A stretch of DNA of 64,000 nt from an uncultured Candidatus Saccharibacteria bacterium (GTDB lineage Bacteria; Patescibacteriota; Minisyncoccia; Phycocordibacterales; UBA2100). Under the pieces are notes generated by a model that was given only the letters and a program-made list of their open reading frames with translations, had not been told where the DNA came from and ran no database searches. Every line of letters begins with the position of its first letter. The first letter of the stretch is position 1. The stretch covers positions 240,564 through 304,563 of the forward strand of contig CAYSUJ010000001.1 of the NCBI GenBank assembly GCA_964434285.1. The letters run 5' to 3'. This document shows, piece by piece, positions 31,416-62,181 of this stretch. Both the position numbers and the translations under genes were made by a program.

Positions 31416-31907
31416 ATGGAGGATTCGAACATGACTGAGACAGGAATCAAGTATCCGTATCTGCCCGAAGGCAAGAAAATTCTGTACGTCCCCGAAGACC
31501 ATCCGCATATGCAACGTGCAAAGGGGCGCGCTCTTGAGCACTCTCTCGACGACGCGGTGAAGACTGGTGCGGTTGTCGTTCGCGGCAGTATTGTCATCGG
31601 CGAGGGGGCAAACGGGAGCGACTATCACAAGACGAACGAATGCGAACGTGTGAAGCGCGGGATGCCGACTGGTCAGGGTTATGAGCTCTGCGAAGGATGC
31701 CACCCGAAGAATCATGCCGAACCACGCGCAATCGCTGACGCGCGCACGAGCGGTCACTCGACCGAAGGCGCCGACCTGTACTTGTATGGTCACTGGTGGT
31801 GTTGCGAACCTTGCTGGCGAGCCATGATAGAGGCGGGTATTGCGAATGTGTACCTACTCGAGCGCAGCGAAATTCTCTTTAACAATAAACGCGAGGCGAA
31901 ACGCTAA
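31416..31907 (+). CDS. dCMP deaminase (CDA-fold zinc deaminase)
   Basis: HAEPRAI (H-A-E) and CCEPC (PCxxC) zinc-binding motifs. Confidence 0.8.
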   Translation: MEDSNMTETGIKYPYLPEGKKILYVPEDHPHMQRAKGRALEHSLDDAVKTGAVVVRGSIVIGEGANGSDYHKTNECERVKRGMPTGQGYELCEGCHPKNHAEPRAIADARTSGHSTEGADLYLYGHWWCCEPCWRAMIEAGIANVYLLERSEILFNNKREAKR

Positions 31908-31912
31908 CCTAA

Positions 31913-31945
31913 GGAGCCGGCAGTTCCCTGAACTGCCGGCTCATT
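31913..31945 (+). terminator. Rho-independent terminator GAGCCGGCAGTTC-cctg-AACTGCCGGCTC plus ATTTTGTG
   Basis: 12-bp perfect stem 6 nt after the dCMP deaminase stop, with a T-rich tail. Confidence 0.7.
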
Positions 31946-32345
31946 TTGTGCACACTCACACATCGATGCCCCAAAAGTAGCCGATCCACGAATAGACGAG
32001 AAGTATCATCGTCTCCAGATCGGGTTCGGCGTACAGGGCAAAAAGAACGACCAGCGCCGTGCCGGAATCAAACAGGCGAACGCTACGAATCCTCGTCTCG
32101 ACGCGCAACTGGTAGCCGATGAACATACCGGCAAGCGCACAATACAGAATCGAAAGTGCCATCTGTGCCTCCTGTGTTCCCTACACCCATGTGTAATATC
32201 ATCTTTACCTCTCCTACTCAAGGAGTACGGTCAAAGTGGAATCCTTCCCCCATGTGCGGCATTCTGATCGAGATCGACATCTTGATTTCAATTTTTTTCG
32301 ATTATACTTAAGTGAGTTAGATGTTCATAGTCGAGGAGAAATGAA

Positions 32346-32522
32346 ATGGGTGAAATTAGTGAGAGAGAGGCAGACCAAGTTGCGCTTGAGGTAGCGCCCA
32401 ATTCTGCGAAAATAATGGCGCAGATAAGAAAAGCCATCGATGAAGACATTGAAAAGTCTTTGCGTCTCGATCTGTTTCGGCAGGCGCGGGGACAGGGCAC
32501 GAAAAACTCCTCGGATAAATGA
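32346..32522 (+). CDS. Hypothetical 58-aa protein (absent from the ORF track; below its size cutoff)
   Basis: GAGGAG Shine-Dalgarno about 9 nt upstream of ATG 32346. Stop overlaps the downstream ATG in an ATGA arrangement. Sequence MGEISEREADQVALEVAPNSAKIMAQIRKAIDEDIEKSLRLDLFRQARGQGTKNSSDK. Confidence 0.35.
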   Translation: MGEISEREADQVALEVAPNSAKIMAQIRKAIDEDIEKSLRLDLFRQARGQGTKNSSDK

Positions 32523-32605
32523 CCGAGCCAGAGAGATTGTCATGCACTTATTATGGCCGACTCACGAGGTTCGGCCATATATTTTGCGCATGCTATCATC
32601 CGTCC

Positions 32606-33283
32606 ATGCGCGGCATACTCATTGATATCGAAGGTGGCGACGGCGCGGGCAAGGCGACGCAGACAAAGATGCTTGCCGAGCGACTCAAGGCGGAAGGACG
32701 AGAAGTCGTCACCTTCTCTTTCCCCCGCTACTACGAATCCCATTCCGGCAAACTCATCGGCGAACTCCTTGCCGGAAAACACGGCGATTTCATGAGTGTG
32801 CCGCCCTACATCTCCGCGCTTCCCTATGCGATGGATCGCGGCACAGCGCGGGATGCGATTCAGGAAGCGCTTGCAAAGGGTGCCACTGTAATCTGCGACC
32901 GCTACACATCATCAAATCTCGCGCACCAAAGTGCAAAACTCCCCAAAGATGAACAGGGCGCACTCGTCGAATTCATCGAGAATCTCGAATATGTCGATTT
33001 ACGCCTCCCACGCCCCGACGTCGTCATGTACCTCTCCGTTCCGACTGATGTTTCTGCGGAGCTCGTCTCAAAGAAAGAGGCCCGCGAATACACAGGAGGC
33101 GAGAAGCGCGATCAGGCCGAACGCAATATGGCACACCAAGATAGAACACGTTCCGCCTACCTGCGATTAGCTGCAGAAAAAGGCTGGCGCATCGTGGAAT
33201 GCGCGCCCTCGGGCGCACTCAGAGGACCTGAAGACATCCACGAGGAGGTGTCAAGAATTGTGCACGAAATGCTGGCGGTATAA
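32606..33283 (+). CDS. tmk: Thymidylate kinase
   Basis: MRGILIDIEGGDGAGKATQ P-loop, DRY motif (ICDRYTSS), Tmk lid region. Confidence 0.85.
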   Translation: MRGILIDIEGGDGAGKATQTKMLAERLKAEGREVVTFSFPRYYESHSGKLIGELLAGKHGDFMSVPPYISALPYAMDRGTARDAIQEALAKGATVICDRYTSSNLAHQSAKLPKDEQGALVEFIENLEYVDLRLPRPDVVMYLSVPTDVSAELVSKKEAREYTGGEKRDQAERNMAHQDRTRSAYLRLAAEKGWRIVECAPSGALRGPEDIHEEVSRIVHEMLAV

Positions 33284-33290
33284 TGCGTGG

Positions 33291-33626
33291 ATGGATTTTG
33301 ATGAGTACGAAAAGTTGGCATCCCGCACGGCAACATTCGACGGCTCGCAAAAAGAATACGCACTCCTCTATCTTGGCCTTGGAGTAACAGGCGAAGCGGG
33401 TGAAATCGCGGAGAAAATTAAGAAGATTGCACGCAACGATAACGGCGTCGTTTCCGATGAGAAACGGGAAGCTCTAAAACAAGAAATTGGCGATGTACTC
33501 TGGTACCTCTCCCAACTCTCGCGCCATCTCGGCATTCCATTCTCTGACGCAGCAAAAGCAAACATCCAAAAAACCGCCGATCGTGCAGCCCGCGGCGTTA
33601 TAAAAAGCTCCGGCGATAACCGATAA
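33291..33626 (+). CDS. MazG-like nucleotide pyrophosphohydrolase
   Basis: EAGEIAE and EIGDVLWYL metal-binding helices of the all-alpha NTP-PPase fold. Confidence 0.65.
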   Translation: MDFDEYEKLASRTATFDGSQKEYALLYLGLGVTGEAGEIAEKIKKIARNDNGVVSDEKREALKQEIGDVLWYLSQLSRHLGIPFSDAAKANIQKTADRAARGVIKSSGDNR

Positions 33627-33683
33627 CGGTATGATTTAGCTTTTTCTACAAACCACAGTCTACAAACTACTAACTACTCCTCT

Positions 33684-34952
33684 ATGGAACTCTACCCTTT
33701 CACCAAAAAACAAGACCCAAAAATCTACAAAGCCCTCCAAGGCGAGGAAAAACGCCAAGCCGCCGGACTCGAACTCATTCCCTCAGAAAACTACGTCTCG
33801 CGCGCCGTGCGTGAGGCAAATTACTCCATCCTCACTAATAAATATTCGGAGGGCTATCCCGGTAAGCGCTACTACGGCGGGCAGGAATTTACCGACGCCG
33901 TGGAAACACTTGCGATCGAGCGCGCAAAAAAGCTCTTCAAGGCGAAGTACGCCAACGTGCAAACACTTGGTGGCGCAAATGCCAACATCGCGATGTATTT
34001 CGCTCTACTCGAACCCGGCGATACCGTCCTCGGCATGGATCTCTCGCATGGCGGCCACCTCACGCACGGTCACCCCGTCACCTATCTCACCAAAATCTTC
34101 CGCTTCGTGCGCTACAAGATGAAAAATCCCGATACCGGCGAGATTGATTACGACGAGATGCGACAGGTGGCGCTCAAGGAGAAGCCGAAAATCCTGCTTG
34201 CAGGATTTTCGGCCTACCCCCGCGAACTCGACTACAAACGCATGGCCGCGATCGCGCGAGAAGTCGGTGCCTATGCCGTGATGGACGTCGCCCACATCGC
34301 AGGACTCATTGCCGGTAAAGCGGTGAAAAACCCCTTCGACTACGGCTTCGACATCATGACCTCAACAACGCACAAAACCCTCCGCGGCCCCCGAGGTGGT
34401 CTCATCCTCATTCGCGAAAGCGAAGAGCTCGCTAAGAAAATCAACAAATCCGTCTTTCCCGGCCTTCAGGGTGGCCCCCACATGCACGCCGTTGCCGCAA
34501 AAGCAGTCGCCTTCGGCGAAGCGCTCTCCCCGAAATTCCGCGTCTATGCGAAACAGGTTCTGAAGAACGCGAAAGCGATGGAGAAAGTATTCAAAGCGCA
34601 CAACATTCGCCTCCTCGCAGGTGGCACGAGCAACCACCTCCTCTTGGCTGACGTGTACGGATCGCTCGGTATCACTGGGCAAGATGCCGAACACACGCTC
34701 GACCTCGTCGGCATTACACTGAACAAAAACTCTGTCGCGGACGACGTCCGCGGCCCAATGGATCCCTCCGGCATCCGTTTCGGCACGCCCGCCATCACGA
34801 CTCGCGGCTTGAAGGAAAAAGAATGCATAAAAGTCGCCGAATGGATGGTCGCCGCACTCAAAAATAAAGACAACAAAAAAGAATTAGTAAAAATTAAAAA
34901 GGAGGTCGAAAAACTCTGCAAAAAATTCCCGATTCCGAACAAGTTCGTATAA
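33684..34952 (+). CDS. glyA: Serine hydroxymethyltransferase
   Basis: LIPSENYVS, PLP-lysine region TTTHKTLRGPRGG, full SHMT length. Confidence 0.95.
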   Translation: MELYPFTKKQDPKIYKALQGEEKRQAAGLELIPSENYVSRAVREANYSILTNKYSEGYPGKRYYGGQEFTDAVETLAIERAKKLFKAKYANVQTLGGANANIAMYFALLEPGDTVLGMDLSHGGHLTHGHPVTYLTKIFRFVRYKMKNPDTGEIDYDEMRQVALKEKPKILLAGFSAYPRELDYKRMAAIAREVGAYAVMDVAHIAGLIAGKAVKNPFDYGFDIMTSTTHKTLRGPRGGLILIRESEELAKKINKSVFPGLQGGPHMHAVAAKAVAFGEALSPKFRVYAKQVLKNAKAMEKVFKAHNIRLLAGGTSNHLLLADVYGSLGITGQDAEHTLDLVGITLNKNSVADDVRGPMDPSGIRFGTPAITTRGLKEKECIKVAEWMVAALKNKDNKKELVKIKKEVEKLCKKFPIPNKFV

Positions 34953-35021
34953 AAAAGCCCCTGTCACATTTAAGACGCGGGGCTTGTCTCGAGCTGGGAC
35001 GTACCCTTGCGAAAACGCTGG

Positions 35022-35240
35022 TTAGTTAGACCGGGTCTTCGCAGTCTCGTGAACAAGCCTCATGAAGTCAGCGAATTGCTCCGCGGTGGCTTCCTGTCGC
35101 TCGTCCTCGATGTACGTTTCCAACTCCTCGGGAGTCATTCTGCGGATATCGTTCCGCATATCATTCTCGATCGTATCCCGGATGTAATCGAGAAATTGCT
35201 GCTCTTTAGGCGACAGCGGCCTTTTCTTGTCTGCGCTCAT
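35022..35240 (-). CDS. Hypothetical small acidic protein
   Basis: ORF only. No motifs. Confidence 0.3.
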   Translation of the reverse strand: MSADKKRPLSPKEQQFLDYIRDTIENDMRNDIRRMTPEELETYIEDERQEATAEQFADFMRLVHETAKTRSN

Positions 35241-35358
35241 CGCGCACCTCCAAGACCTATACCCGATCGTATAGTCTCTACAAATTAACAATAACATTAC
35301 AATTTGTCAATCCCCAAAATCCCATTGAAACAAGCCAAAAATCGGTCATACTACGGAG

Positions 35359-36720
35359 ATGTTTTTTGGTATTGATTTAATCCAAGCAATTCAAGTGATT
35401 GGCTACCCCGGCATTTTTGCGATCATCCTGGCAGAGAGCGGCCTCTTTTTCGCCATCTATCTCCCTGGCGGCTCCCTTCTCTTCACCGCAGGCCTTCTCG
35501 CCTCGCAAGACATTCTCAACATCTGGCTTCTTCTCTCCATCGTCATCGTCGCAGCCGCGCTCGGCGACACGATCGGCTATTGGTTTGGCGCGTGGGTCGG
35601 CCCGGCACTCTGGCGTCGCGAAGATTCCCGCTTCCTCAAGCGAAAACACCTCGAACAAACACGCGAATTCTTCGATGAACACGGTGCGAAGACCATCCTC
35701 CTCGCACGCTTCGTTCCAATCGTACGCACCTTCGCACCGATTCTCGCGGGCGTGGGCGAGATGCGCTATCACACCTTCCTTTTTTACAACCTCCTCGGTG
35801 CACTTATTTGGGGCGGCGGCTTCACACTCGCTGGCTATTTCCTCGGCACCTCAATTCCGGATGCGAGTAAATATCTTGAGGTGATTGTTCTCGGCATTGT
35901 CTTCGTCACCATCCTTCCCTTGGTGCATCATGTGTGGCAAGCGCGCAGGCGTGAAGCGAAAAAAAACGACACCGGAGCATCAAAACCGCACGCATTAATT
36001 TTCGACCTCGACGACACGCTCGCGGAGAGCTTCCAAGCACCGAGCGAGCAAATTCTTGAGAAAGTGTTCACTCTCGCGGAGCGCATGCCGGTTGCCATTA
36101 TGTCGGGAGCCACATTCTCACGCCTCGAACGCGACATCATGCAACGTCTTCCCGCACACCACATGGCACAACTCTCCGTCTTTTCTGACAACGGCGCACG
36201 CGCTGACGTATGGAAAAACGGCACATGGGAAACCGCCTACCACTTCCCCCTTGAAAGCGCCGAGCGAGAACAAATAAAGAACATCGTCTCTGAAGCAGTC
36301 GCGGAAACCGGCGTGTTTAATGCTGAAGAGCCGCAGTATCGCATCATCGACCGCGGCACCTCCGTCTCTTTTGCTGCGCTCGAAGACGGGGCGACGAAAA
36401 CCAAGAAAAGCACATGGGATCCCGATCTTTCCAAGCGCTCAAAGCTTGCAGAAGCTCTCCGCGCGAAACTCCCCGGCTATGAAGTGCTGATCGCCGGCAA
36501 AACCACCATCGACATCGTCCGCAAAGGCATCAGCAAAGCCTACGGCGTTGAATGGCTCGCAGAGCACTTAGGTATCCCAGCAAAAGACATGCTTTTCGTC
36601 GGCGACGCCTTTTACGAAGGCGGGAACGACGCCGCTGTTATCCCCACCGGCATTAAAACCCACCACACGAGCGGCCCCAAAGAAACGGAAGAGCTCATCG
36701 ACAACCTCCTCCGCCCCTAA
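35359..36720 (+). CDS. Fusion of DedA/SNARE-associated membrane domain and HAD-IIB hydrolase
   Basis: N-terminal DedA-like GIFAIILAESGLFFAIYLPGGSLLFTAG with 4-5 TM. C-terminal LIFDLDDTLAES and FVGDAFYEGGNDAAV. The C-terminal half is paralogous to 11362..12084. Confidence 0.75.
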   Translation: MFFGIDLIQAIQVIGYPGIFAIILAESGLFFAIYLPGGSLLFTAGLLASQDILNIWLLLSIVIVAAALGDTIGYWFGAWVGPALWRREDSRFLKRKHLEQTREFFDEHGAKTILLARFVPIVRTFAPILAGVGEMRYHTFLFYNLLGALIWGGGFTLAGYFLGTSIPDASKYLEVIVLGIVFVTILPLVHHVWQARRREAKKNDTGASKPHALIFDLDDTLAESFQAPSEQILEKVFTLAERMPVAIMSGATFSRLERDIMQRLPAHHMAQLSVFSDNGARADVWKNGTWETAYHFPLESAEREQIKNIVSEAVAETGVFNAEEPQYRIIDRGTSVSFAALEDGATKTKKSTWDPDLSKRSKLAEALRAKLPGYEVLIAGKTTIDIVRKGISKAYGVEWLAEHLGIPAKDMLFVGDAFYEGGNDAAVIPTGIKTHHTSGPKETEELIDNLLRP

Positions 36721-36776
36721 CCCAAGGCACCCATCCCCAAGGTCCCCAAGGCGACGCCTTGTTCCAAACAAGCCAA

Positions 36777-37448
36777 TCAGAGAGCCATATTTTTATAGTA
36801 CTCTGCAGCATCTTCCAGGACCTCTGCCAGTTCCACATTTGTTTCGAACAAAGTGCGTGTTTCCGGATCAAGTACTAAGCTTTCAGCCCTCGGTGCACCA
36901 AAATAGTATCCGGCGCTGCTATATTCATAATTCAAAAGACGCTTCTTGAGTTGTGCAATATCTGCCCTGAGAATCCCCCGCTTCCAATGTGGTTCGAACA
37001 ATTCTGCAGGATTAAGATGGAGATAATTCGGTATGTGCATGAAGTGCGCTTCACTCGTGATTCTTCGTGCACGAAATGGTTTGAGAAATAGATTTCCCGT
37101 TCGTTCGTTGCGTTTATTGAAATACATCGTATACGCAGTACCAACTTTTTGCATATAAGAAGAAATGCCTCCTTCTACTATCTCCTGCATCACTATATGA
37201 AAATGATTTGGCATCAGACAATACGCAGCAATAGATACGAGAGGATCGCCGCGTATATGTCTGAAGATCTCATCGTGCGAAAGGAAGTTAACGTCATTTT
37301 GATGTATTGCTTTCGTACTGTTACTCAGATACAAAGCCTGAAGAAAACGCCGATAGTCATGAGGCGAACAGAAAACACGCCTCTTGTCGACGCCACGATT
37401 GTAACAATGATACCATTCACCGACTCCAAAGGACTCTCGCAACGCCAT
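36777..37448 (-). mobile_element. Y1 (HUH) transposase of the IS200/IS605 TnpA / RAYT family
   Basis: YHCYNRGVDKRRVF and AYCLMPNHFHIVMQ match the Transposase_17 His-hydrophobic-His and catalytic Tyr-region signatures. Flanked by palindromes sharing CAAGGCGACGCCTTGTTC. Confidence 0.8.
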
Positions 37449-37461
37449 TGCCTCTACTATA

Positions 37462-37502
37462 CCACCCCACAGAACAAGGCGACGCCTTGTTCTGTGGGGT
37501 GG
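37462..37502. repeat. Perfect 20-bp hairpin CCACCCCACAGAACAAGGCG-a-CGCCTTGTTCTGTGGGGTGG, 13 nt upstream of the RAYT start
   Basis: Read directly. The same CAAGGCGACGCCTTGTTC core is at 36747-36764, after three CCCAAGG tandem repeats (36721-36752). Confidence 0.6.
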
Positions 37503-40230: not shown

Positions 40231-43149
40231 CTACAATTCAAACGCCTCCACAAACGGCACTAAGCTGAAGAAGAGTCCTGAGAACAACCGGAGCGGGAGC
40301 CCCATCTGCACTTCCGTGCTTGGCTTTGGCGCGAGCAGGTTTACGCTCTGTATTGGCTTCGGTGCAAACGCATTCTGCTTCGGCGCCACCTGCCCAGTCT
40401 CATTTTTCTTGAGAAGCACGTCGAGTCCGACACCCGGTGCCTTCACGGAACCGCGGAACCGCGAGATCTCACTCAGCTGCGCCTCGGAGAGATCGAATGT
40501 CATTGCGTTCTGGCAGGCGATCTCGTTCACTTTCTTCTGTGTCGTGTAGTAGACGTTCCCCGTCGGTCGTGAGATGCCCCATGGCGTGAGGATGTCCGTC
40601 GCATACTTGCTCTGGAAGCGCATGACCGCAGCAAGGGTCTTCGAATCATAGGTACCGGTGGTGTCCAAGGTCTCGCCCTCGTATGAATTGAGGAATGTCT
40701 GGAGCGCCACCACCTGTCCCGGCGCATTCTGCTTCATTGGGCGAATGTATTCCGTAAGGAGGGGGGCGCAGGTCTCCTCTCCCAACACTTCGCCACCGGG
40801 CAAGATCTCGATAACCTTCTTCGCCACAATCGTCGCGAGTGGAATACCTGTGTCATACATACCCGTCATCTTTGCCGTGTTGGTGTAGTAGCCCGGCTTT
40901 ACGGTCGCACCAAAATCAACCGTGTATTTAATGGTAACCACCTCTTTTTCCTTAAGGGTGCCCAAATCCCAGCGCTGCGTGCCAATCTCCTTGCCATCCG
41001 GTGAGACCAAGACGTCAGTCACCACCACCTTCTTAAGCTTTCCGCCCTGATTATCGACGGTGATCACATATTCAACCTGTGTTGGTCCCGAGATCGTGCT
41101 TGCGCTTGCTTCCTTTGTGAGGATCACATTCGGCTTATAGTAGCTCTTGCCGCCTGAGCCGCCACCCGAGCCACCGCCGCCGCCACCGCCTCCACCGATA
41201 ACCTGCTCCGTAATGTCGCCAAGAATATCTGGCTCGCCTGGCTTTACGCCGAACTGCAGATCGCCGTCCCAATCGCCTGCGATGTTGAACATCGCGAAGA
41301 TCCAGTCTTGCCCAATGATCGTCTGGTTGACCACGTTCAAGATCGAGAGGAATGCGTCTGCATCTCCCGTGTTAATCGTTGCCGACTGCCCTTCCGCCGT
41401 GTTCGCGCCCGTCCTCGCCTCCACAATCGCACCGTTCAAGATGCGCGCGTAATTCGTGGTCGAGGCGATAAGTCCGTCATGTCCTGCACGATCGCTCGCG
41501 CCACCCGCGCCACAGATGAGGTGACCAAACTCCGTCCCTACGTGCTGGAAGCCCTCCGGCATCTGTACCACTTCACCATTCCAGTCTCCGCCGACAGAAA
41601 CCACGAAGCAGATAGGCGCACCGATCTGGTTCACAAAGTTTGCAACGGTCGTCTTTGCACGTGCATCACCTGTCGTGATATCAGAGCCTTCGGTCGAGAG
41701 CGCCGTGTTATCGCCCGTAAGCGCTGTTGTCGTACCGTTGTTCAAAACACCCGCGTCGTTGTCCACCTTTAAGACACTGTCGCGACCAAGTGTCGCACCC
41801 GTTGAGAGTGTCTTAAAGAATGCGCCATCTGGAAGCAGAATGTCGCCGGAAAGGTCACCCTCGTTATGCATTAGGAGAATGAGGTAGCGGGAATCAACGA
41901 GCTGAAGGTTACCGAAGTTCACGATACCGCCATAGGCAAGCGCGTCCCCTGTGTCGATCGTCGCATCGCCCTCTTCTGAGTGGGCACGATTCTCGCCAGA
42001 GAGCGAGCTGACCACGAGTTCATTCTTGATCTCGACCTCGTTCTCAGTGTAGAGGCGGAATTTCGCGTCGTCGGTGTCATCGCAACCCGTAAGGTTACAT
42101 GCCGTTGTGACGAGTCCAGAGAAAAGATCAATGATGCGCTGCGTGAAATCAAGCGCATCGCCGAGAGGATTGCGAAGGAAGAGAATGTTTCCTGTCGAAT
42201 TTGTGATTGCGATATTGAAGAGTGAAATGAGATAGCCGAATGCCTTTGAGCGTCCGGTCACGATAAGCGCATCACCTGGCTCCGTCACCTCGGTTGCACC
42301 CGTGAGATCCGTCTGCCCTTCGGTTGAAGTTGCCGTGTCGGCGAGTTCATCAGTAATAGATTCAGCGGTAGTACTTGCACCGGCAACGTCACCAAGGTTA
42401 GCCTCATCACTCGAGCCGCCGCCAGAGCCTCCACCCGAACCATTCGCAGAGCCGCCATCGCCGCCTGAGCCACCCGAACCACCGTCACCACCAGTTGCAC
42501 CGGAATCGGCCCCTGTTTCGCCATCTGCTGTTGCGTCGGCACCTGCGCCATCTCCACCTGTGCCACCCGTGCCAGCGTCAGCGCCACCACCAGTGCCGTC
42601 GCCGCCGTCACCACCTGCTCCGCCTGAGCCGCCCGTAGCGTCCGCGCCCGCATCGGTACTTTCGGAATCAGCCGTGCCGGTGCCGCCATCGCCACCCGCA
42701 CCACCATCGCCAGCGTCGCCAGTTGAAGCATCCCCACCAGTGCCACCATCACCACCCGCGCCACCCGTTGCGCCGGCATCGGTGCCATCACCAGTTGCGT
42801 CCGCCGTGCCGCCATCGCCGCCTGTACCCGCATCGCCGCCGCTTGCACCAGAACCACCGTCGCCGCCAGTTCCTGCGTCCCCGCCAGTTGCATCGGCGCC
42901 GCCATCTGTCCCGCCATCCGTCGACTCAGAAGTCGCCTCAGGCGCAGGATCTGAGGTTGTCTCCGTTGTTTCCTCAACAACAGGTTCCGGTGTTGGCTCG
43001 GGAGTAGGTTCGGAGACCGCCTCAGCAGTGGGTGCAGGATCAGCTTCTTGTGCAAATGCTACAAACGCAGGAAGTGGCGCCGCAAACACAAGAACGAACA
43101 TCGTGACGATGCTCGCAAGCTGCATAGTGATGGAGTTTTTTGTAAACAT
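40231..43149 (-). CDS. Giant (972 aa) secreted surface protein: Gly/Asp/Thr low-complexity N-terminal region, TGDA-repeat beta-domain, poly-Gly linker, C-terminal peptidoglycan-binding-like domain
   Basis: Signal peptide MQLASIVTMFVLVFAAPLPAFVAFA. (GGDGG/TGGDA)n. C-terminal LQTFLNSYEGETLDTTGTYDSKTLAAVMRFQSKYATDILTPWG resembles PG_binding_1. Confidence 0.7.
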   Translation of the reverse strand: MFTKNSITMQLASIVTMFVLVFAAPLPAFVAFAQEADPAPTAEAVSEPTPEPTPEPVVEETTETTSDPAPEATSESTDGGTDGGADATGGDAGTGGDGGSGASGGDAGTGGDGGTADATGDGTDAGATGGAGGDGGTGGDASTGDAGDGGAGGDGGTGTADSESTDAGADATGGSGGAGGDGGDGTGGGADAGTGGTGGDGAGADATADGETGADSGATGGDGGSGGSGGDGGSANGSGGGSGGGSSDEANLGDVAGASTTAESITDELADTATSTEGQTDLTGATEVTEPGDALIVTGRSKAFGYLISLFNIAITNSTGNILFLRNPLGDALDFTQRIIDLFSGLVTTACNLTGCDDTDDAKFRLYTENEVEIKNELVVSSLSGENRAHSEEGDATIDTGDALAYGGIVNFGNLQLVDSRYLILLMHNEGDLSGDILLPDGAFFKTLSTGATLGRDSVLKVDNDAGVLNNGTTTALTGDNTALSTEGSDITTGDARAKTTVANFVNQIGAPICFVVSVGGDWNGEVVQMPEGFQHVGTEFGHLICGAGGASDRAGHDGLIASTTNYARILNGAIVEARTGANTAEGQSATINTGDADAFLSILNVVNQTIIGQDWIFAMFNIAGDWDGDLQFGVKPGEPDILGDITEQVIGGGGGGGGGSGGGSGGKSYYKPNVILTKEASASTISGPTQVEYVITVDNQGGKLKKVVVTDVLVSPDGKEIGTQRWDLGTLKEKEVVTIKYTVDFGATVKPGYYTNTAKMTGMYDTGIPLATIVAKKVIEILPGGEVLGEETCAPLLTEYIRPMKQNAPGQVVALQTFLNSYEGETLDTTGTYDSKTLAAVMRFQSKYATDILTPWGISRPTGNVYYTTQKKVNEIACQNAMTFDLSEAQLSEISRFRGSVKAPGVGLDVLLKKNETGQVAPKQNAFAPKPIQSVNLLAPKPSTEVQMGLPLRLFSGLFFSLVPFVEAFEL

Positions 43150-43399
43150 ACGTATTTAAAGTTGGTTTTCCCTGGTAATGGTGGAACTGCGACCGTCGTC
43201 AAAAGTTTTTTCCTGCTGGAAAAACTTTCGACCCTGTCTCGCCCCGACGGGCTCCGGCCTTGCGACGGGGCCCCAACCCCGTCTCACCCTCTCCGAGAAC
43301 CCGAGAGCATTTCCCTAGCAGCTAGAAGCTAGTACCTAGAAGCTCTTACCGATTCTCGTGAGAAGGAGGGAGGTTGCCCTCCCTGCCTTCTTCCGCCAT

Positions 43400-44272
43400 T
43401 TAGCGGATAACGCGGATCAAGAGCGAATTGATGAGATTCACTGCACCCGAGTTAGATACTGCAGCACCCGTTACGATGAGGCCGCCAGCACCGCCGTTGC
43501 CGCCGTTGCCGCCGTCACCACCTGAGCCTGCCTTACCACCGTCTGCATCTGCATCTGCATCAGCATCGCCGTCTTCAGCGTCTGCATCTGCGTCAGCGTC
43601 AGCTTCGCCGCCGGTTGAGCCGTTGCCAGCATCATCACCGTCGCCACCGAACGAGCCATCAGCCCAGTTCCAGCCGGTCTTAGCGTATGCGTCTGTCTTG
43701 TTGACGAGAGCGCCTCCGTTAACAACTGCGATTTCAACTTCATTGTCTGCATCGTAGTCGACATCGTCGAAATCTTCGACATCGTCGAGATCAGCATCAC
43801 AGCCACAGCCCTCAACCTTGATGTCGGTCGAGTTGATGACGTTCATCGTGCCAGCGTTTGCTTCTGCATCGCCAGTTGCGATTGTGCCACCAGCACCGCC
43901 TGCGCCGCCGTTACCGCCGTCGCCGCCTGAGCCGCCCTTACCGCCGTCTGCATTTGCATCAGCATCTGCATCGCCGTATTCGTCAGCATCTGCATCTGCG
44001 TCAGCATCAGCGTCGCCGCCGTAGCCGCCGTTGCCGCCCTCCTCGCCGTCGCCGCCGTAGGAGCCGCCTGCCCAGTTGCCACCCGTTGAAGCAGTTGCAG
44101 TCGTCGAGTTCACGACGAATGCGCTGTTCACGACAGTGACCTTCACATCGTTGTCCAAGTCAACGTCGATCTCCGAGTCGTTGTAGTCTGCAAACGCTGG
44201 GAGAGCCGCCGTCAACGAAAGGAGTGCTGCGATCGTTGCAACCGCTGCACCGTAGTTCATTGTCTTTGTCAT
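43400..44272 (-). CDS. Secreted Gly/Asp/Ala-rich repeat protein with an internal tandem duplication of about 120 aa
   Basis: Signal peptide. Two homologous halves, each with VVN-x-T, GG-NWAGGS-GGDG, (DA)n and TGDA-x-N-x-G-x-N-I-NS segments. Confidence 0.6.
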   Translation of the reverse strand: MTKTMNYGAAVATIAALLSLTAALPAFADYNDSEIDVDLDNDVKVTVVNSAFVVNSTTATASTGGNWAGGSYGGDGEEGGNGGYGGDADADADADADEYGDADADANADGGKGGSGGDGGNGGAGGAGGTIATGDAEANAGTMNVINSTDIKVEGCGCDADLDDVEDFDDVDYDADNEVEIAVVNGGALVNKTDAYAKTGWNWADGSFGGDGDDAGNGSTGGEADADADADAEDGDADADADADGGKAGSGGDGGNGGNGGAGGLIVTGAAVSNSGAVNLINSLLIRVIR

Positions 44273-44755
44273 AATTATTTTTGAATTTAGAAGATTCTGT
44301 TAATTCCCTTTTAATCTCCCATTCCGCCCCCGTACGGATGGCGTAATGCTGGAGTCCTCGACCTCGTGTCTGTGTAAGAGCCGCTAAGCCCCCCGTGCAG
44401 TCCACGGCGCGATTCCTCGGGGGAGGAATCGCGCCATACACTTCACGCGTTTTCCTCCGAACGAACAGCCAAAACACCACGAGCAGAAACTCGCGACGTT
44501 AATACAAAAAAACCAGTACTGAAAATCTTGTAATGAGTCATGCGCTCGAAAGCGCTGGTTTCCCCATCTCACTTAACAAGCTCGCGCTTGTTATGGAGAT
44601 TGCTCACTGATTTCCCTTACTGGTTTCCTTACCATCTCACTTTGCGTAGAGATGATGCAGGGATTATCTCGCACCCACACGTGAAGTCAATGTTTTTTTC
44701 GTGTGGATAACGCCGACGATACAAATATCTGCATGCGTCAATAATTTTTAAAAGA

Positions 44756-44790
44756 AAAATCCCCGGAAAGTTCTGGGGATTTTTCTTTCT
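44756..44790. terminator. Bidirectional terminator AAAAATCCCC-ggaaagttct-GGGGATTTTT
   Basis: Perfect 10-bp stem with A/T runs on both sides. Confidence 0.6.
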
Positions 44791-54941: not shown

Positions 54942-55712
54942 ATGGAAACTGTTCAAAAACTCGCAGTCCCCATCGCTATCGTCATTGCAGGAGCGATGAT
55001 CGCAGCATCGCTGTTCTTCGTCCAATCAAAAGCACCTGCTGCAGGCGGAACACCACAGGCAGTAGTCGCAGAAGAGATTCGCGGTCCACAATCTGACGAC
55101 CACATTCGCGGCAATCCCAATGCAAAAGTGGTCATCGTGGAGTTCTCTGACACGGAGTGCCCATTCTGTAAGCAGTTCCACGAGACCATGAAGCGCGTCA
55201 TTGATGAGTACGGTGCTTCCGGCGACGTCGCATGGGTTTACCGCCACTTCCCAATCCCTTCACTCCACCCGAAAGCCCCTAAGGAAGCAGAGGCACTCGA
55301 GTGCGCAGCTGAGCAGGGTGGCAACGACATGTTCTGGAAATTTACCGACATGGTCTATGGCCGCACCGAGGCAAACAACTCGCTCGACATCGGCATCCAC
55401 AACTCACCGAAAGACGTGCCACTCGGTCCCGACGGCAAACCTTACTACGCCCAGGCAACGCCACGCTCCGCATCAGACGCAGGTCAGCTCTCTGACTTCG
55501 CCCGCGAACTCGGGCTCGACGTGGCAAAGTTTGAAGAGTGCATGACCTCGGGTCGCATGACAGACCGCGTGAACAAAGATCAAGCTGAGGTAGTTGCCGC
55601 AGGCGGCGGCGGCACTCCGCACTCCATCATTATCGTTGACGGTGAACAAATCCCTCTCGAAGGCGCACAGCCGTTCGATGTAGTGAAAGGTCTCATCGAC
55701 TCACTCCTCTAG
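54942..55712 (+). CDS. DsbA-family thiol:disulfide oxidoreductase with signal anchor
   Basis: CPFCKQFH active site in a thioredoxin fold. N-terminal TM. Confidence 0.85.
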   Translation: METVQKLAVPIAIVIAGAMIAASLFFVQSKAPAAGGTPQAVVAEEIRGPQSDDHIRGNPNAKVVIVEFSDTECPFCKQFHETMKRVIDEYGASGDVAWVYRHFPIPSLHPKAPKEAEALECAAEQGGNDMFWKFTDMVYGRTEANNSLDIGIHNSPKDVPLGPDGKPYYAQATPRSASDAGQLSDFARELGLDVAKFEECMTSGRMTDRVNKDQAEVVAAGGGGTPHSIIIVDGEQIPLEGAQPFDVVKGLIDSLL

Positions 55713-55869
55713 CCCCGCTCGCGAGGTTGCCAGAAACACCTCTTTCGGGTCGCTGTCTGCGCGTGCTCGCGCAGCGCTCACTCTCGGCTCGTCAGCCTGC
55801 GAGAGACCCTCATGAGGTATTTCTGTCACCCTCGTCTCGCTCAACAAATCGCACTGTTCTCAGCGAGAC

Positions 55870-56069
55870 GACGATGCGGGGCGATGCTTTGACGGGGTCT
55901 TTCGCAGTGAGGAGGGGTTGGGGCCCCGCCGCAAGGCCGAAGCAGCTTGGCTGTGAGGCGGGGTCGCGCAAAATCGCAGCAGCGATTTATGCGTGACCGT
56001 CGGCGCGAGAAGGAGCGAATTTTCAGCAGAAAATTACGCGACCCCGGAGAAGCACCGCCCCGCATCGTC
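55870..56069 (+). repeat. Hairpin-embedded conserved element, copy D, with an insertion of about 85 nt in the core
   Basis: Outer arms GACGATGCGGGGCGaTGCTT / AAGCAcCGCCCCGCATCGTC. Core ends GGGGTCTTTCGCAG ... CGTCGGCGCGAGAAGGAGCGAATTTTCAGCAGAAAATTACGCGACCCC. The insert carries a second AGCA-loop hairpin AAATCGC-agca-GCGATTT. Confidence 0.7.
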
Positions 56070-56088
56070 ACGAGCCAAAGTGATGGCA

Positions 56089-56991
56089 TCACTCGGTAAG
56101 CCCAAGTCGGTAAATATCGAACGAGTGTTCGCCCTCGAACATATCTGAAGGATTCGGAAGAAACACCTTCCGGCGAGCCAGATCGTTCGTGGCGTCAGTG
56201 ATGAGTCGCCTGAAGATGACGAATTCTTCCGCACACTGCGAGAAATCGATCACATATTTCCGCATCTGGCTTTTTCCATCAGCATTCTTCCGCTTTTTGC
56301 ATTCGTGCAAAATAAACTTCCCCACCGGTTTCCCAAACTGCGCCTGAACGGTGTAGTAGTTGAACATCGCCTGCACGATAAAGAGTGTTTTTGAGGCGCC
56401 CATGCCGCTAAAAGAATCAACAAACTTGTGGTCGACAATATCAATCTCTTTTGCATTCGTCTTTGAGCGCACCACAAGGTCTGAAACAGCCTTGAGAGGG
56501 AGCGGAAGCCCGGGAACTTTTGTCATTGCCTTAACTTCAACACCGAGTACGTCGTAACGCGGAGGTCGCGCCAAGTAGAATCCAATCGCCTGGAGGTATT
56601 CACGCTCCATACTCGCCCGCTTTTCTTTCTGCGCCTTCTTAGTCTTCGCAACGCCAAAATTAACCTCGAAATCACCCACGTTCCGCAGGTTCTCAAGCCC
56701 CAGCTCAATCGCACCCTCTTTCGCGATGCCGCCATAAAAGTGCTGGAGTGCCACATGCGCTGCTCGACCCACAATTCCCGCAGGCGAGGACGGTGTGTCG
56801 TATACATGCTCCACATACCGCTTGTACCACGCGAGCGGGTTGCGCAAATACGCCATAAGGGAGGAGTGGCTCCAATAGGATATCGGCAGCTTACGCATCA
56901 TGGCGGCAGTATACCAATTGAGAAACTCATAAATATATGTAATGGTAGGCGAAGTCAGCATCAGGGAGAGACCCATGGAAACAACTCGCAT
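56089..56991 (-). CDS. PD-(D/E)xK nuclease superfamily protein (RecB/Cas4-like fold)
   Basis: EIDIVDHKF matches the (V/I)D-x-K core with an upstream acidic residue. No Cys cluster seen. Confidence 0.5.
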   Translation of the reverse strand: MRVVSMGLSLMLTSPTITYIYEFLNWYTAAMMRKLPISYWSHSSLMAYLRNPLAWYKRYVEHVYDTPSSPAGIVGRAAHVALQHFYGGIAKEGAIELGLENLRNVGDFEVNFGVAKTKKAQKEKRASMEREYLQAIGFYLARPPRYDVLGVEVKAMTKVPGLPLPLKAVSDLVVRSKTNAKEIDIVDHKFVDSFSGMGASKTLFIVQAMFNYYTVQAQFGKPVGKFILHECKKRKNADGKSQMRKYVIDFSQCAEEFVIFRRLITDATNDLARRKVFLPNPSDMFEGEHSFDIYRLGLTE

Positions 56992-57771: not shown

Positions 57772-60333
57772 ATGACATCACACACCCATAGTCCAGATTC
57801 CTGTTTCAATGAATCGCGAGTGCTGGAGACACTCAAACACTATCTTCCCTCCCAGGGCCCTTTAAAGGACTTTGTGCACCACAATAGCCTCCACGCCTTT
57901 CAAGACATGGAGTTTTATGCCGCTATTTTCAAAGCATCGAAAATATTTGGCTATAAAGTGACCTTTTCTCTGGCTGAGTATCGCAACCTGTACCGCATCA
58001 ATCGCATTCACAAGAACATCCTCGAACGCGTTATTCGCGAACATGTTGGCGACGATCATTTTCAAGTATGGCTCGAAAAGCTTATGCACGGGACTTATGG
58101 CGGAAAGCTTGATGCTCGCGCTCTGAAACTTCGACAAGGCTGGCAAGAGCAGTATCCGATAGACCTCAATAACGCTGTGCATCCGGTGTTATTCCGCATC
58201 CTGTGCAGTTACCTGGATCAGGGAGTGGCCATCACACCATTCCCTTTTGAGAACAAAGGGCTCCTCAACGCGATTCGGATACTTGAGCGTCATAGTTTTG
58301 TACACTTTTTCAGAACAAAACGAGCGCGAATACTCCTCCACGACAATGACCTTTCCCTCAAAAAACTCCTTACCATCCTCGTTGGCAAAGAGGAGTTTTT
58401 TGAAGAATATCTCTACGGGCAGCAATTTTCGCACCGCGGATGGTCAGGCATGGTTTCTACTCTTGAAAATCGTCCTGAGACCCTCTTGTATCCAAAGAAC
58501 ATAACACTCAAGGAGCTTATACTACTGGAGTGTCTATTGGAAATTGATGCACTGGACTCAGCCCTCGGCACACACTGGAAACCCTTGGGAGAGATTACCC
58601 GTCGCACGCCTACGAACATCTTTGCAGATACTGAGCCAAATGAAATCTACGAGGTTATCAAGATATGGCACGATGCTTTTGAGTGGAGTTACTACGACGA
58701 GGCATTAGCGGCCTTACTCGCCACCGCAACATCGGCGGCTGCGCCCAGAAAGAAGCATGCATCGTTCCAAGCCGTCTTCTGCATTGATGAGCGCGAGGAT
58801 TCAATCCGCCGTCACATCGAACGAGCCGACCGTTCATGCGAGACACTAGGAGCTCCAGGCTTCTTTGGCGTCGAGTTTTATTTCCACCCGGCGCACGCCA
58901 AGTTCTATGACAAACTGTGCCCTGCCCCTGTCACACCACGATACTTGATTCAAGAAATCTCCCCCACCGAAACGCATACGCCCGCACGCGAGGTTGCATA
59001 CCTCAAAGAGTCGCACACACTTTTCCGTGGCGCACTGGCTTCATATATCTTAGGCATCCCCTCGTTAGTGCGACTTCTCTATAACATCTTCTCACCGAGC
59101 ATGAGCCCCGCCATCGCAAACGCGTTCGGACACATGCATGCCGAATATGCGCTGACGATTTTGCACAAAGGAAAACGAGATGAAAAGCATGACCTCCAGA
59201 TCGGATTCACTATGAGTGAAATGGCGGATCGTGTTGAGAAGTTGCTCCGTGGCATCGGCTTGGCTAAGCATTTCTCTGATCTCGTATATTTCGTAGGCCA
59301 CGGGTCATCAAGTGCAAACAACCCACACCATGGTGCGCATGATTGCGGCGCGTGCAGCGGACGCCCGGGTTCGGTTAATGCGCGCGTTGCCGCATCAATG
59401 GCAAACGATGATTCCGTACGAGGAGAGCTTGCGAAACGTGGCCTTGTCATCCCAGCTTCAACGCGATTCGTAGGAGCGCTGCATGATACCGCGAGTGACG
59501 AGATTGAGTTCTACGATGAAAAAGACCTTCCGCCCACACACCGATCCCTCCACGCAAAGAATAAAGAAAGTTTTGAACACGCCCTCGATCTCAACGCAAA
59601 GGAGCGCTCACGGCGTTTTATGTCCATCAACACCAAGCAATCCCTCAAACAAGTGCGCAGGGCGGTTAAACAGCGATCTGTTTCCTTCTTTGAGCCGCGA
59701 CCCGAGCTTGGCCATGGCACCAACGCACTCTGCATCGTAGGCAACCGTACACTCACTCGCAATCTCTTCCTCGATCGACGCGCCTTTATGAACTCCTATG
59801 ATTACCAGACGGATCCCGACGGAACATTTCTGGCGAATGTCATCGCGCCGCTTCCAATGGTATGCGGAGGCATCAATCTTGAATACTATTTCTCGCGAAT
59901 GGACAACTCCAAACTGGGGGCAGGCACCAAATTACCACACAACGTCATGGGACTGATCGGAGTTGCGAATAGCAGCGACGGAGATCTCCGCGCCGGGCTT
60001 CCGCTCCAAATGATCGAAGTGCACGATCCCGTTAGGTTGCTCATGATTATTGAGCATGACCCCGCGGTGGTATTACGCGTGATTTCTGCATCTCCCTCGC
60101 TTTATGAGTGGTTCATCAACGCATGGATACATTTGGTAGTGCTGCACCCCGGCGAAAAAAAGCTCTATCTCTTTAAAAAAGGAGTGTTCGTTCCGTATGA
60201 ACCGTCCACCGCCGAGGTGAACATTCTCACAACAGATTTTCTTGAAATGATCGAGTCTACTGCCAAAATGAAAACGAATGACATACTCGACGCAACTCAC
60301 GAAAACATTAAGGTTCAGATTCTCCACCAGTAA
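57772..60333 (+). CDS. dabA: DabA (DUF2309) subunit of a DAB-type energy-coupled inorganic-carbon pump
   Basis: 853 aa. Beta-carbonic-anhydrase-like zinc-site motifs FCIDERED (C-x-D-x-R) and HGAHDCGAC (H-x2-C). DUF2309 length. Immediately upstream of a NuoL-like gene. Confidence 0.85.
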   Translation: MTSHTHSPDSCFNESRVLETLKHYLPSQGPLKDFVHHNSLHAFQDMEFYAAIFKASKIFGYKVTFSLAEYRNLYRINRIHKNILERVIREHVGDDHFQVWLEKLMHGTYGGKLDARALKLRQGWQEQYPIDLNNAVHPVLFRILCSYLDQGVAITPFPFENKGLLNAIRILERHSFVHFFRTKRARILLHDNDLSLKKLLTILVGKEEFFEEYLYGQQFSHRGWSGMVSTLENRPETLLYPKNITLKELILLECLLEIDALDSALGTHWKPLGEITRRTPTNIFADTEPNEIYEVIKIWHDAFEWSYYDEALAALLATATSAAAPRKKHASFQAVFCIDEREDSIRRHIERADRSCETLGAPGFFGVEFYFHPAHAKFYDKLCPAPVTPRYLIQEISPTETHTPAREVAYLKESHTLFRGALASYILGIPSLVRLLYNIFSPSMSPAIANAFGHMHAEYALTILHKGKRDEKHDLQIGFTMSEMADRVEKLLRGIGLAKHFSDLVYFVGHGSSSANNPHHGAHDCGACSGRPGSVNARVAASMANDDSVRGELAKRGLVIPASTRFVGALHDTASDEIEFYDEKDLPPTHRSLHAKNKESFEHALDLNAKERSRRFMSINTKQSLKQVRRAVKQRSVSFFEPRPELGHGTNALCIVGNRTLTRNLFLDRRAFMNSYDYQTDPDGTFLANVIAPLPMVCGGINLEYYFSRMDNSKLGAGTKLPHNVMGLIGVANSSDGDLRAGLPLQMIEVHDPVRLLMIIEHDPAVVLRVISASPSLYEWFINAWIHLVVLHPGEKKLYLFKKGVFVPYEPSTAEVNILTTDFLEMIESTAKMKTNDILDATHENIKVQILHQ

Positions 60334-60339
60334 ACCAAT

Positions 60340-62181
60340 ATGTTGATACTGCTTTTCATTGTCCTGCCGCTTTTCGCACTCGCGCTCTGCTGCATGTTCC
60401 CCAATCGCTTGGAAAGAAGCATATCTAACACAGCAACATCGGCCATTCTTGCAGTATCGGCACTATTTGCAGGGACGCTTTTCCACTGGTGGCAAGGTGG
60501 ATTTACCCCTCTTTCCCAGAAGGGACTCACACTCTTCTCTAGCGCCCACTACGTATTTGCAGTGGATTTCTATATGGACAGCATCTCAGCTGTCTTCTTT
60601 GGAATGACGTGCATAATAACGATCCTCGTACTCCTCTTTAGCCGGTACTACATGCACCGCGATCCCGGATTCAGACGCTTCCATACGACAATCTTGTTCT
60701 TTTTTGCGGGCCTTGCCCTCATTATCTTCTCGGGAAATTTTGAAACACTGCTCATTGGGTGGGAGTGGATCGGCATCAGTTCCTTCATACTGATTGCGTT
60801 TTACCGAGATCGTTTCTTGCCCACGAAAAATGGCCTCAAGGTCTTCTCACTATACCGCTTAGGAGATGCGCTCCTTATTGTCGCGATCTGGTATGCGCAC
60901 CACCTCTTCGAAACCAACGTGCACTTTTCGCAGTTTCCATCGCTCGTAAACATGCACGGGAACGCGCTTCTTGTGCTTGGCATCCTTTTTCTGATGGTGT
61001 CCATGATAAAGTCCGCGCAATTCCCTTTCTCATATTGGCTCCCGCGCGCAATGGAGGGGCCGACCGTATCGAGCGCGATATTTTACGGCGCACTTTCAGT
61101 GCATATCGGCTTATTCCTCTTGCTTCGCACATATCCCCTCTGGGAAGGTAGCGCTGCGCTGCGCATGTCCATTATGTTTCTGGGATTCCTTACGGCACTC
61201 ATCGCAACCTCTATTACTCGTGTCCAATCGTCGATTAAAACACAGATTGCATACGCATCAGTCACCCAGATCGGCATCATGTATATGGAGCTCGCAGCCG
61301 GATTCCACTCCTTGGTACTTCTCCACTTCGTGAGTAACGCATGTCTCCGCACCTATCAGCTCCTTATTTCTCCCTCTATCGTCAGTTATCTGACCCATTA
61401 TCAAATCTACACATTCGTACCGCCGGAAAATAAAATACGCCCGGGTTTCATCGGGAAAATCCGTGCCACTCTCTTCATTCTGGGATTAAAAGAGTGGAAC
61501 ATGGACGGTGTAATGACGCGATTTCTTTGGCAACCACTCAAGCGCGTAGGACAGCGGATGCGATTCTTAGATACTGTGTGGGCAAGCGCCCTCTCCGCAA
61601 TCCTCATAATCATGGGAGTGTTTGCCATCTATGACGAAGCGCTGCCACATGCGACCCTCGACATCATCACGTGGACGAGCAGTATTCTGAGTATACTCTT
61701 TTTCATACGTGCTTACATAAGTAAAGGCACCGCACTTATGTGCTGGACCCAGATTTTTCTTGGGCAACTCTTTGCCAGCCTTTCCCTAGGCGCGCTCTCG
61801 AGCGCCGCTGCCCATACCGTCCCACTCTATCTTTCGGGCATCATACTTGCCTACCTCGTAGGCATTGCCTGTCTCCTCGTGCTGAGCCGCTCTGTAGGAT
61901 CCTACACATTGCTGGAATTCCATGGATTCATGTACACACATCCTGTACTCGGTAACATATTTCTCGTCGCCAGCCTCGCTATGATGGTATTTCCTATAAC
62001 CCCATCCTTTGTAGGTGGAGAAATTCTCCTGAGTGTTATACATACACATTACATCGCACTCGTATCGATGTTTTCGTTGGGGTATGTGTTGTCGGGAATC
62101 TCTGCACTACGACTCTTTGCAAAAGTATTCTTCGGACCCCACCAAAAGACCCACCACGAGATTGCCTACCGGTCGTCGTAA
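60340..62181 (+). CDS. dabB: DabB: NuoL/MrpA-like proton-conducting membrane subunit
   Basis: 613 aa, at least 14 TM, Proton_antipo_M-type core (WLPRAMEGPTVSSAIFYGALSVHIG). 6-nt gap from dabA. Confidence 0.85.
   Translation: MLILLFIVLPLFALALCCMFPNRLERSISNTATSAILAVSALFAGTLFHWWQGGFTPLSQKGLTLFSSAHYVFAVDFYMDSISAVFFGMTCIITILVLLFSRYYMHRDPGFRRFHTTILFFFAGLALIIFSGNFETLLIGWEWIGISSFILIAFYRDRFLPTKNGLKVFSLYRLGDALLIVAIWYAHHLFETNVHFSQFPSLVNMHGNALLVLGILFLMVSMIKSAQFPFSYWLPRAMEGPTVSSAIFYGALSVHIGLFLLLRTYPLWEGSAALRMSIMFLGFLTALIATSITRVQSSIKTQIAYASVTQIGIMYMELAAGFHSLVLLHFVSNACLRTYQLLISPSIVSYLTHYQIYTFVPPENKIRPGFIGKIRATLFILGLKEWNMDGVMTRFLWQPLKRVGQRMRFLDTVWASALSAILIIMGVFAIYDEALPHATLDIITWTSSILSILFFIRAYISKGTALMCWTQIFLGQLFASLSLGALSSAAAHTVPLYLSGIILAYLVGIACLLVLSRSVGSYTLLEFHGFMYTHPVLGNIFLVASLAMMVFPITPSFVGGEILLSVIHTHYIALVSMFSLGYVLSGISALRLFAKVFFGPHQKTHHEIAYRSS

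Follow-up and report, generated by a model that had tools for sequence, protein, structure and literature searches.

A structure-conserved hairpin repeat family of Patescibacteria, with a copy best described as composite

Copy D, the element at the centre of this analysis, occupies positions 55870-56069 (+) of a 64-kb stretch of a Saccharibacteria genome, the whole of which is called the window here. It lies between the convergent genes of a DsbA-like protein (54942-55712, +) and a PD-(D/E)xK nuclease (56089-56991, -), as had been stated in a preceding sequence-only reading of the window; the same gap also holds copy E of the same family, which that reading had overlooked and which was found by BLAST against the fetched loci and then by covariance model. 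CPR/Patescibacteria genomes are tiny and contain little non-coding DNA, and to our knowledge almost nothing is known about their non-coding elements. In members of the family, the strand carrying the AGCA motif folds into an outer stem of 15-45 bp of free sequence, capped by a conserved three-way junction of helices P1, P2 and P3. P1 is GGGGUC/GACCCC, P2 has a conserved base and a small variable apex, and P3 is a hairpin of 10 bp capped by an AGCA tetraloop and bearing an extrahelical A. The parts of D are as follows:

55862-55869 (+): 5' flank motif AGCGAGAC, conserved 5' of copies in high-GC genomes
55870-55889 (+): outer stem 5' arm GACGATGCGGGGCGATGCTT, paired with 56050-56069; homologous to the outer arm of L098
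55890-55899 (+): internal loop TGAC, opposite GGAG at 56046-56049 (tandem G-A), and P1 5' strand GGGGTC (55894-55899)
55900-55907 (+): TTTCGCAG, 5' strand of the P2 base and conserved unpaired bases; nearly invariant in 25 copies, pairing register from RNAalifold
55908-55997 (+): insert of 90 nt in the P2 apex, homologous to the divergent member F and absent from the D-like copy L098
55922-55965 (+): GC-rich hairpin of the insert, stem GGCCCCGCC (55922-55930) / GGCGGGGTC (55957-55965), AGCAGC apical loop with AGCA at 55941-55944
55968-55992 (+): P3-type hairpin of the insert, GCA-AAATCGC-AGCA-GCGATTT-A(bulge)-TGC, with P3 architecture as in copy A
55998-56014 (+): P2 apex remnant (CG-TCGG-CG), P2 3' strand CGAGA and junction AGGA
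56015-56039 (+): canonical P3, GCG-AATTTTC-AGCA-GAAAATT-A(bulge)-CGC
56040-56069 (+): P1 3' strand GACCCC (56040-56045), loop GGAG and outer stem 3' arm AAGCACCGCCCCGCATCGTC (56050-56069)
56070-56076 (+): 3' flank motif ACGAGCC (consensus GCGAGCGG)

When the sequence was read directly (55600-56400), the outer arms (20 bp with a single A-C mismatch) and both core ends of D were found to match the family, as described before, and D has every family feature: P1, the P2 base with CGAGA, an AGCA-loop P3 with 3' bulged A, and a long outer stem. An insertion of 85 nt had been reported. The insertion is real and its size needs correction: 90 nt (55908-55997) lie between TTTCGCAG and CGTCGGCGCGAGA in D, compared with 2 nt in A, B, C and the CPR copies, a net gain of 88 nt. 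The GC-rich stem and the hairpin AAATCGC-AGCA-GCGATTT (55971-55977, 55978-55981 and 55982-55988, respectively) are present within it as described, while the bulged A that follows the stem (55989) and the GCA/TGC base (55968-55970 / 55990-55992) had been missed. The predicted fold of the whole of D (-123 kcal/mol, z = -10.2 against shuffles) keeps P1, P3 and the outer stem, and the insert adds two hairpins to it. It is only because of the insert that the score of D with our covariance model (R1) is as low as 34.5 bits; on the 3' side of the insert, D shares 98% identity with L004.

The covariance model search of the 64 kb yielded five copies (A-E) and a divergent relative, F. Besides D, these are:

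25736-25859 (+): copy A, hairpin 25743-25852, with direct repeat GCGAGCC at 25736-25742 and 25853-25859
26910-27020 (+): copy B, a 111-nt hairpin cleanly inserted relative to L116
50606-50717 (+): copy C, whose outer stem overlaps the stop codon of a SET-domain gene
55715-55841 (-): copy E, of a subfamily with GC-rich P3; covariance model 78 bits, core 92.6% identical to L021, outer stem homologous to L105
about 43170-43300 (-): element F, divergent relative with P2 apex, CGAGA and AGCA-loop P3 with bulged A; 25 bits, E = 0.0017

The core motifs occur four to eight times in the window, against 0.03-0.08 occurrences expected. Copies A, B, C and D are all on the plus strand, and all window copies are located just past stop codons or between convergent genes. 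Copy E (P3 CGCTGCGCG-AGCA-CGCGCAG; flanks GCGAGAC and GCGAGCGG) stands head to head with D, with 20 nt between their 5' flank motifs. The same arrangement was seen in all three cases of adjacent copies (E/D, L033 and L004), one partner being decayed in L033 and L004. No two of the five copies have related outer arms. Since the outer stems of A, B and C are wholly different, these copies do not represent a recent burst from one master copy, which weighs against the mobile reading given below. When the arms of A-E were compared with the rest of the window, no other match with up to three mismatches was found, and the possibility that they serve as guides or antisense sequences was rejected on this ground.

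The fold was evaluated on a structure alignment of 25 intact copies that come from 20 or more CPR contigs (99 columns, 39 pairs scored). Paired states made up 93.4% of the cells, compared with 69.8% in shuffles, and 26 pairs changed on both sides. None of 500 shuffles reached the observed level of covariation, and sliding of the 3' partners reduced pairing to 37-51%. The outer stem, P2 and P3 were recovered independently by RNAalifold. For the P2 base, the register tried first displayed no covariation, and the RNAalifold register (23-48, 25-47, 26-46, 30-43), with two covarying pairs, was preferred. The stems contain 41 G-U against 11 A-C oppositions; from this excess it follows that the AGCA-carrying strand is the one that folds, as RNA or single-stranded DNA alike. 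P3 was paired in 98.8% of cells. The sequence-only reading had seen in the AGCA loop on a covarying stem a recognition feature, for example a protein- or RNase-binding tetraloop. The constancy of the loop stands: AGCA and the bulged A are unchanged in 25 of 25 copies, and nine of the ten P3 pairs change on both sides. The AGCA-loop hairpin is thus probably a feature recognised by a partner. As to the kind of partner, the flanks, the insertion polymorphism and the lack of promoters described below would fit the recognition hairpin of a single-stranded-DNA mobile element at least as much as an RNA tetraloop. Decayed copies exist as well (the second copies of L004, L033 and L038), and those of L004 and L033 have lost the AGCA loop (AGGA).

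An exact-pattern scan of 185,579 species genomes returned 21 loci. Nine of these were true members, all in Patescibacteria assemblies (labelled Nomurabacteria, Paceibacterota, Minisyncoccia, Kaiserbacteria, Saccharibacteria, an unclassified Patescibacteria MAG and one "uncultured bacterium"). The genome from which the window comes is itself Paceibacterota/Kaiserbacteria-like. A metagenome scan added 15 true members; the remaining matches were chance hits in Slackia coding sequence. No true member was present in the viral, phage and plasmid collections (IMG/VR, INPHARED, PLSDB), and a phage or plasmid origin was rejected accordingly. At gathering scores, Rfam 15 gave no match anywhere in the window; around A, D and F, a search at E <= 10 gave only sub-threshold noise from generic long hairpins. 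The family does resemble the structured RNAs of Rfam 15 in being a covariation-supported three-way junction with invariant loop bases, as many small RNAs and riboswitches are. We take the junction layouts of SRP RNA, 6S, Y RNA, hammerhead, twister and hairpin ribozymes and riboswitches not to fit the family, and none of these scored against it. The window contains no tRNA or tmRNA genes. No description of the hairpin family, including its literal sequences, was found in the searchable literature. Within the genomes and metagenomes searched, the family is CPR/Patescibacteria-specific and previously undescribed.

Comparison with related contigs revealed presence/absence differences at several sites. 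The stretch 20002-35897 of the window is collinear with L116 (86% protein identity, about 80% [77-84%] DNA identity), from which A and B are precisely absent. As for A, the empty site in L116 reads CCCAC-GCGAGCC-CCCTTC and the filled site in the window reads GCGAGCC-[110-nt hairpin]-GCGAGCC. As for B, a clean 111-nt hairpin has been inserted relative to L116 with at most a TAG/TAC repeat (<=3 bp) and no GCGAG-type flank. The outgroup L118 has no room for either copy. In about 214 kb of partly redundant sequence from relatives we found a single copy, on L105. The DsbA/nuclease junction is occupied in L102 (90% protein identity) by an unrelated 113-nt spacer without D or E, and in L111/L112 by a 35-nt spacer with a plain hairpin and no element; L106-108 and L113/L114, in which the two genes overlap, have no element there. 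In L113, a pre-existing GCGAGCG lies exactly where the flank of E is found. The D-like copy L098, which has no insert, and the E-like copy L105 share homologous outer stems with D and E, respectively, and reside in different genomic contexts. Because copies with homologous arms sit elsewhere in other genomes, the whole hairpin including its arms is taken as the moving unit. The idea that a core had been inserted into pre-existing terminator hairpins, attractive for the stem lengths, was rejected: A and B are whole-hairpin insertions relative to L116, and the pairs D/L098 and E/L105 share their arms. These comparisons show that close relatives differ by the gain or loss of whole hairpins; the "empty" sites of L116 could represent precise losses instead of sites never filled. 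One element, found at L051:7014-7149 and L085:413-572 on two related metagenome contigs, is inverted between them within collinear flanks of 78% identity, as expected from recombination between the arms. The neighbouring genes of the copies are unrelated, with the exception of yqeY and an exonuclease gene in Nomurabacteria, and the orientation of copies to their neighbours is arbitrary; a cis-regulatory leader of one particular gene was rejected because of these unrelated neighbours.

The flanks of the copies follow a directional pattern. Of 24 copies from high-GC genomes, 12 are bordered by sense-oriented RCGAG at both ends and none by antisense RCGAG at both, the high-GC consensus being AGCGAGAC ... 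GCGAGCGG; copies from low-GC genomes have no GCGAG flanks. Ordinary, orientation-free target duplication was rejected as the source of GCGAG, given the constant orientation and the fact that the two flanks differ in the same way across copies (GCGAGAC vs GCGAGCGG). Such flanks agree with insertion at GCGAG in a fixed orientation, or with recombination that uses GCGAG as its core. The flanking duplications are uneven (7-8 bp at A, no more than 3 bp at B, possibly 10 bp at the first copy of L012, none at many) and therefore do not fit one simple transposase. The direct repeat AATCCTC(A/G)CC (10 bp), which contains the reverse complement of GCGAG, lies a few bases beyond the stem of the first copy of L012 (740-905); this may be a longer target duplication in opposite orientation, off the GCGAG rule.

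As for the origin of the extra sequence in D, the insert shares the block GGGGTTGGGGCCCCGYCGCAAGGCCG with F without a single difference (26 of 26 nt; F side 43255-43280, -), where no such match is expected by chance, and a collinear alignment of about 100 nt continues through the GGGTCG motif, the P3-type hairpin (AGCA, bulged A) and TGAC. F lies 12.6 kb from D on the opposite strand, in a 250-nt gap between two large repeat-rich proteins and upstream of a 972-aa gene, and the layout of its hairpin is the same as that of the P3-type module of the insert. The inner hairpin had been said to mimic the family motif. It does carry the AGCA loop on a different, complementary stem, but the roughly 100-nt alignment with F makes it homologous and no mere mimic. 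Because of the 26-nt identity and this alignment, we regard the insert as a piece of an F-type member in the P2 apex instead of a chance resemblance, and a composite (nested) copy is the best description of D. A partial duplication or a recombination event inside D itself, with no capture of a second element, would explain why GGGGTC...TCGCAG occurs twice in it (55894-55907 and 55960-55979) and why the second occurrence can be aligned by the covariance model as an alternative 5' half. This weaker alternative to F-type capture appears improbable to us, as it leaves aside the 26/26-nt block and the collinear similarity to a locus 12.6 kb away on the other strand, and as nothing in canonical copies corresponds to the first 50 nt of the insert. 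A different P2-apex expansion, of 24 nt with two small hairpins, is found in the metagenome copy L085 and is missing from its ortholog L051, and the P2 apex is thus a site that tolerates expansion. F-type elements were sought at other loci, and none was found among 118 loci.

The reading that we favour, and to which we assign a probability of roughly 0.6, sees in D a composite copy of a mobile hairpin repeat that is strand-specific, non-autonomous, CPR-specific, non-coding, conserved in structure and gained or lost as whole units. According to this model, a trans-acting protein would read the junction and the P3 hairpin, with its loop and extrahelical base, on a single strand, and would move the element in an orientation-specific manner to GCGAG sites. 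Our best available guess for the route would be HUH/Y1 single-strand DNA transposition of the IS200/IS605 or REP-RAYT kind. Surviving copies would be those at gene 3' ends, where long stems may be harmless or may act as terminators. A more far-reaching version starts from a mere lead, namely that the P2 3' strand is formed by GCGAGA, to which GUCUUUCGC in the core is complementary. In this version, which we put forward as one joint claim and consider rather unlikely, the family would be a new kind of minimal mobile element acting as a single folded strand, either DNA or a mobile RNA gene, that chooses its targets by base pairing of GUCUUUCGC with GCGAG. If so, the conserved three-way junction of one hairpin of about 110 nt would bear both the recognition hairpin, with its AGCA loop and extrahelical A, and GUCUUUCGC, and the element would select its target by base pairing, as the ends of IS200/IS605 or the guide sequences of ribozymes do, but within a single hairpin, and D would record the insertion of one element into another.

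The only candidate for a mobile-DNA enzyme in the window is a Y1/HUH transposase-like gene at 36777-37448 (-), which matches PF01797 (26.5 bits), contains the HUH motif PNHFHIV and scores weakly with NCBIfam REP_Tyr_transpos (38.7 bits, under the cut-off of 80). No linked TnpA or integrase domain was found in the window. The Y1 gene is flanked by palindromes of its own, CAAGGCGACGCCTTG (36747-36761 and 37475-37489), which occur nowhere else in the window and are not family copies; the second of these lies inside a 20-bp perfect hairpin (37462-37502). The stretch 36747-37502 (-) looks, in itself, like a REP/RAYT-type system in a CPR genome. Homologs of the Y1 gene on L109/L110 have different flanking repeats (GATGTCCGACATC) and sit in 20-kb stretches devoid of elements. 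The Y1 gene is not linked to the family, to which no enzyme could be tied, a point against the mobile reading. That the family comprises the cognate REPs or REPINs of this RAYT-like transposase would be suggested by the PF01797 and weak REP_Tyr_transpos matches and the HUH motif, and by the nature of the elements, which are hairpins with a short conserved flank motif that often form inverted pairs. However, the gene is bordered by palindromes absent elsewhere in the window, its homolog on L109 by yet another palindrome, and the NCBIfam score is below the cut-off. Moreover, REP arms are conserved between copies, whereas here the arms vary and the cap is conserved. We hold this relationship to be very doubtful, the least probable of the explanations considered.

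A serious rival to the mobile repeat, possible in our view though it falls well short of even odds, is a CPR-specific host small-RNA gene, trans-acting or serving as an RNA-protein scaffold, which has been duplicated in some lineages. In this case the P2 expansion would make D a variant with a second AGCA hairpin for protein binding, and the gain and loss of copies would be ordinary gene turnover. The two readings are not mutually exclusive. In Nomurabacteria, at least six contigs have a single copy at a syntenic site between yqeY and an RNase T/ExoX-like exonuclease gene, and compensatory changes are seen in its P3 and outer stem; this looks like a host-selected gene and not like a selfish repeat. 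In L033, a decayed syntenic copy adjoins an intact one, as expected if one working copy is needed. The G-U bias on one strand, the conservation of unpaired bases and of a wobble or G-A loop, as is typical of RNA, and a T-run 8-10 nt past the 3' flank of several copies point in the same direction. On the other hand, although CPR promoters are poorly known, a scan near A, B, D and E detected no sigma-70-like promoter, and the copies do not share any conserved box upstream, so that an own promoter for the element was rejected; head-to-head pairs leave no room for promoters at all. The small RNA is further opposed by the arbitrary orientation to neighbouring genes, inverted even between the orthologs L051 and L085, by the lack of copies in most of the about 214 kb from close relatives, by the precise filled and empty sites with duplicated GCGAGCC, and by the want of an Rfam match. 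Alternatively, the elements could be terminators, insulators or 3'-end stabilisers of tightly packed genes, with the long stem doing the work, the conserved cap binding a factor, and D being a longer version. The location of all window copies just after stop codons or between convergent genes agrees with this, as do the many plain perfect hairpins (14-25 bp) of the same stem length at such places in this genome and the plain hairpin of L111 at the junction where the window has D and E. For such a role, however, GCGAG flanks would be unnecessary, and so would a 60-nt junction with conservation between CPR classes; many copies run antisense to the genes on either side, and in close relatives the genes overlap at the same junctions and elements are missing. 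We give this explanation little weight, and we keep to the mobile, composite reading of D.

Regarded as a mobile repeat, the family can be compared with several known systems. With REP/REPIN-RAYT it shares short non-coding palindromic repeats at gene ends, a hairpin specific to one strand and bordered by a short conserved motif, the frequent occurrence of inverted pairs, persistence in a lineage over long times and a Y1/HUH gene in the same genome. It differs in that REP arms are conserved, whereas the family has free arms and a conserved 60-nt three-way-junction cap; in addition, its flank is GCGAG and not GTAG, its copy number is low, and the local RAYT-like gene is flanked by unrelated palindromes. 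When the REP criterion was applied, GTAG was found to begin the stem only in copy C and in some Nomurabacteria copies. Non-autonomous derivatives of IS200/IS605 (palindrome-associated transposable elements) likewise need the fold on one strand only and have an extrahelical base in the recognition hairpin. The family may also resemble them in precise excision and in orientation-specific insertion by a 4-5 nt target that then flanks the element; the GCGAG flanks of A and other copies and the GCGAGCG at the site of E would agree with such insertion, but B has no such flank. However, these have two distinct end hairpins and cause no duplication, while the family consists of one composite hairpin with the same pentamer on both sides; B, C and the low-GC copies are without the flank motif, and no cognate TnpA was found. 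MITE-like repeats (Correia, ERIC, RUP, BOX) are also intergenic hairpin-forming insertions of 100-150 nt with presence/absence polymorphism and nested copies, but they possess conserved terminal inverted repeats and target duplications of fixed length, in contrast to the varying arms and the flank repeats of 0-10 bp seen here. Integron attC sites, finally, are recombination sites that fold from a single strand, are defined by their structure and contain extrahelical bases and a variable region. In attC it is the stem base that is conserved (R and L boxes) and the apex that varies, the reverse of the family, which has direct-repeat and not inverted flanks, and lacks R''/R' boxes, an integrase and a cassette array.

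The family is a covariation-supported element common to Paceibacterota/Kaiserbacteria, Nomurabacteria, Saccharibacteria and other lineages, with no entry in Rfam and no mention in the searchable literature. It would be either a new type of mobile repeat, with free arms, a conserved cap and oriented pentamer flanks, or a lineage-specific small RNA, and each would be a first for the CPR radiation. The covariance model R1 can be used at once for annotating the element. The pairs of filled and empty sites and the composite copy D provide concrete substrates for biochemistry with CPR Y1 transposases or RNA-binding proteins.

Several other features of the window were recorded. Intergenic perfect hairpins of 14-25 bp with loops of 1-4 nt, mostly without T-run and as long as the outer stems of the elements, are found at 7755-7786, 9262-9296, 12573-12614, 31911-31945, 34184-34213, 44394-44447 and 44751-44788; these plain hairpins are probably the usual terminators of this genome. 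The palindrome ATACGATAACTAT..ATAGTTATCGTAT is present in three copies (1375-1412, 2051-2090 and 11270-11307), two of which bracket a PaaX-like regulator gene (1415-2053, -), and these palindromes may be operator sites. L102, the closest relative of the window, has a gene for bAvd, the accessory protein of a diversity-generating retroelement, between its RNase_H_2-like and HisRS genes (L102:6274-6615), where the window has none. The two large proteins encoded at 40231-44272 (-) are rich in short repeats of Gly/Ala type (9-nt periodic GCCGCC) and contain DUF11 and peptidoglycan-binding domains. At 57772-62181 (+), DabA (PF10070, 699 bits) is paired with a proton-antiporter-like (DabB-type) gene, forming an inorganic-carbon uptake module.
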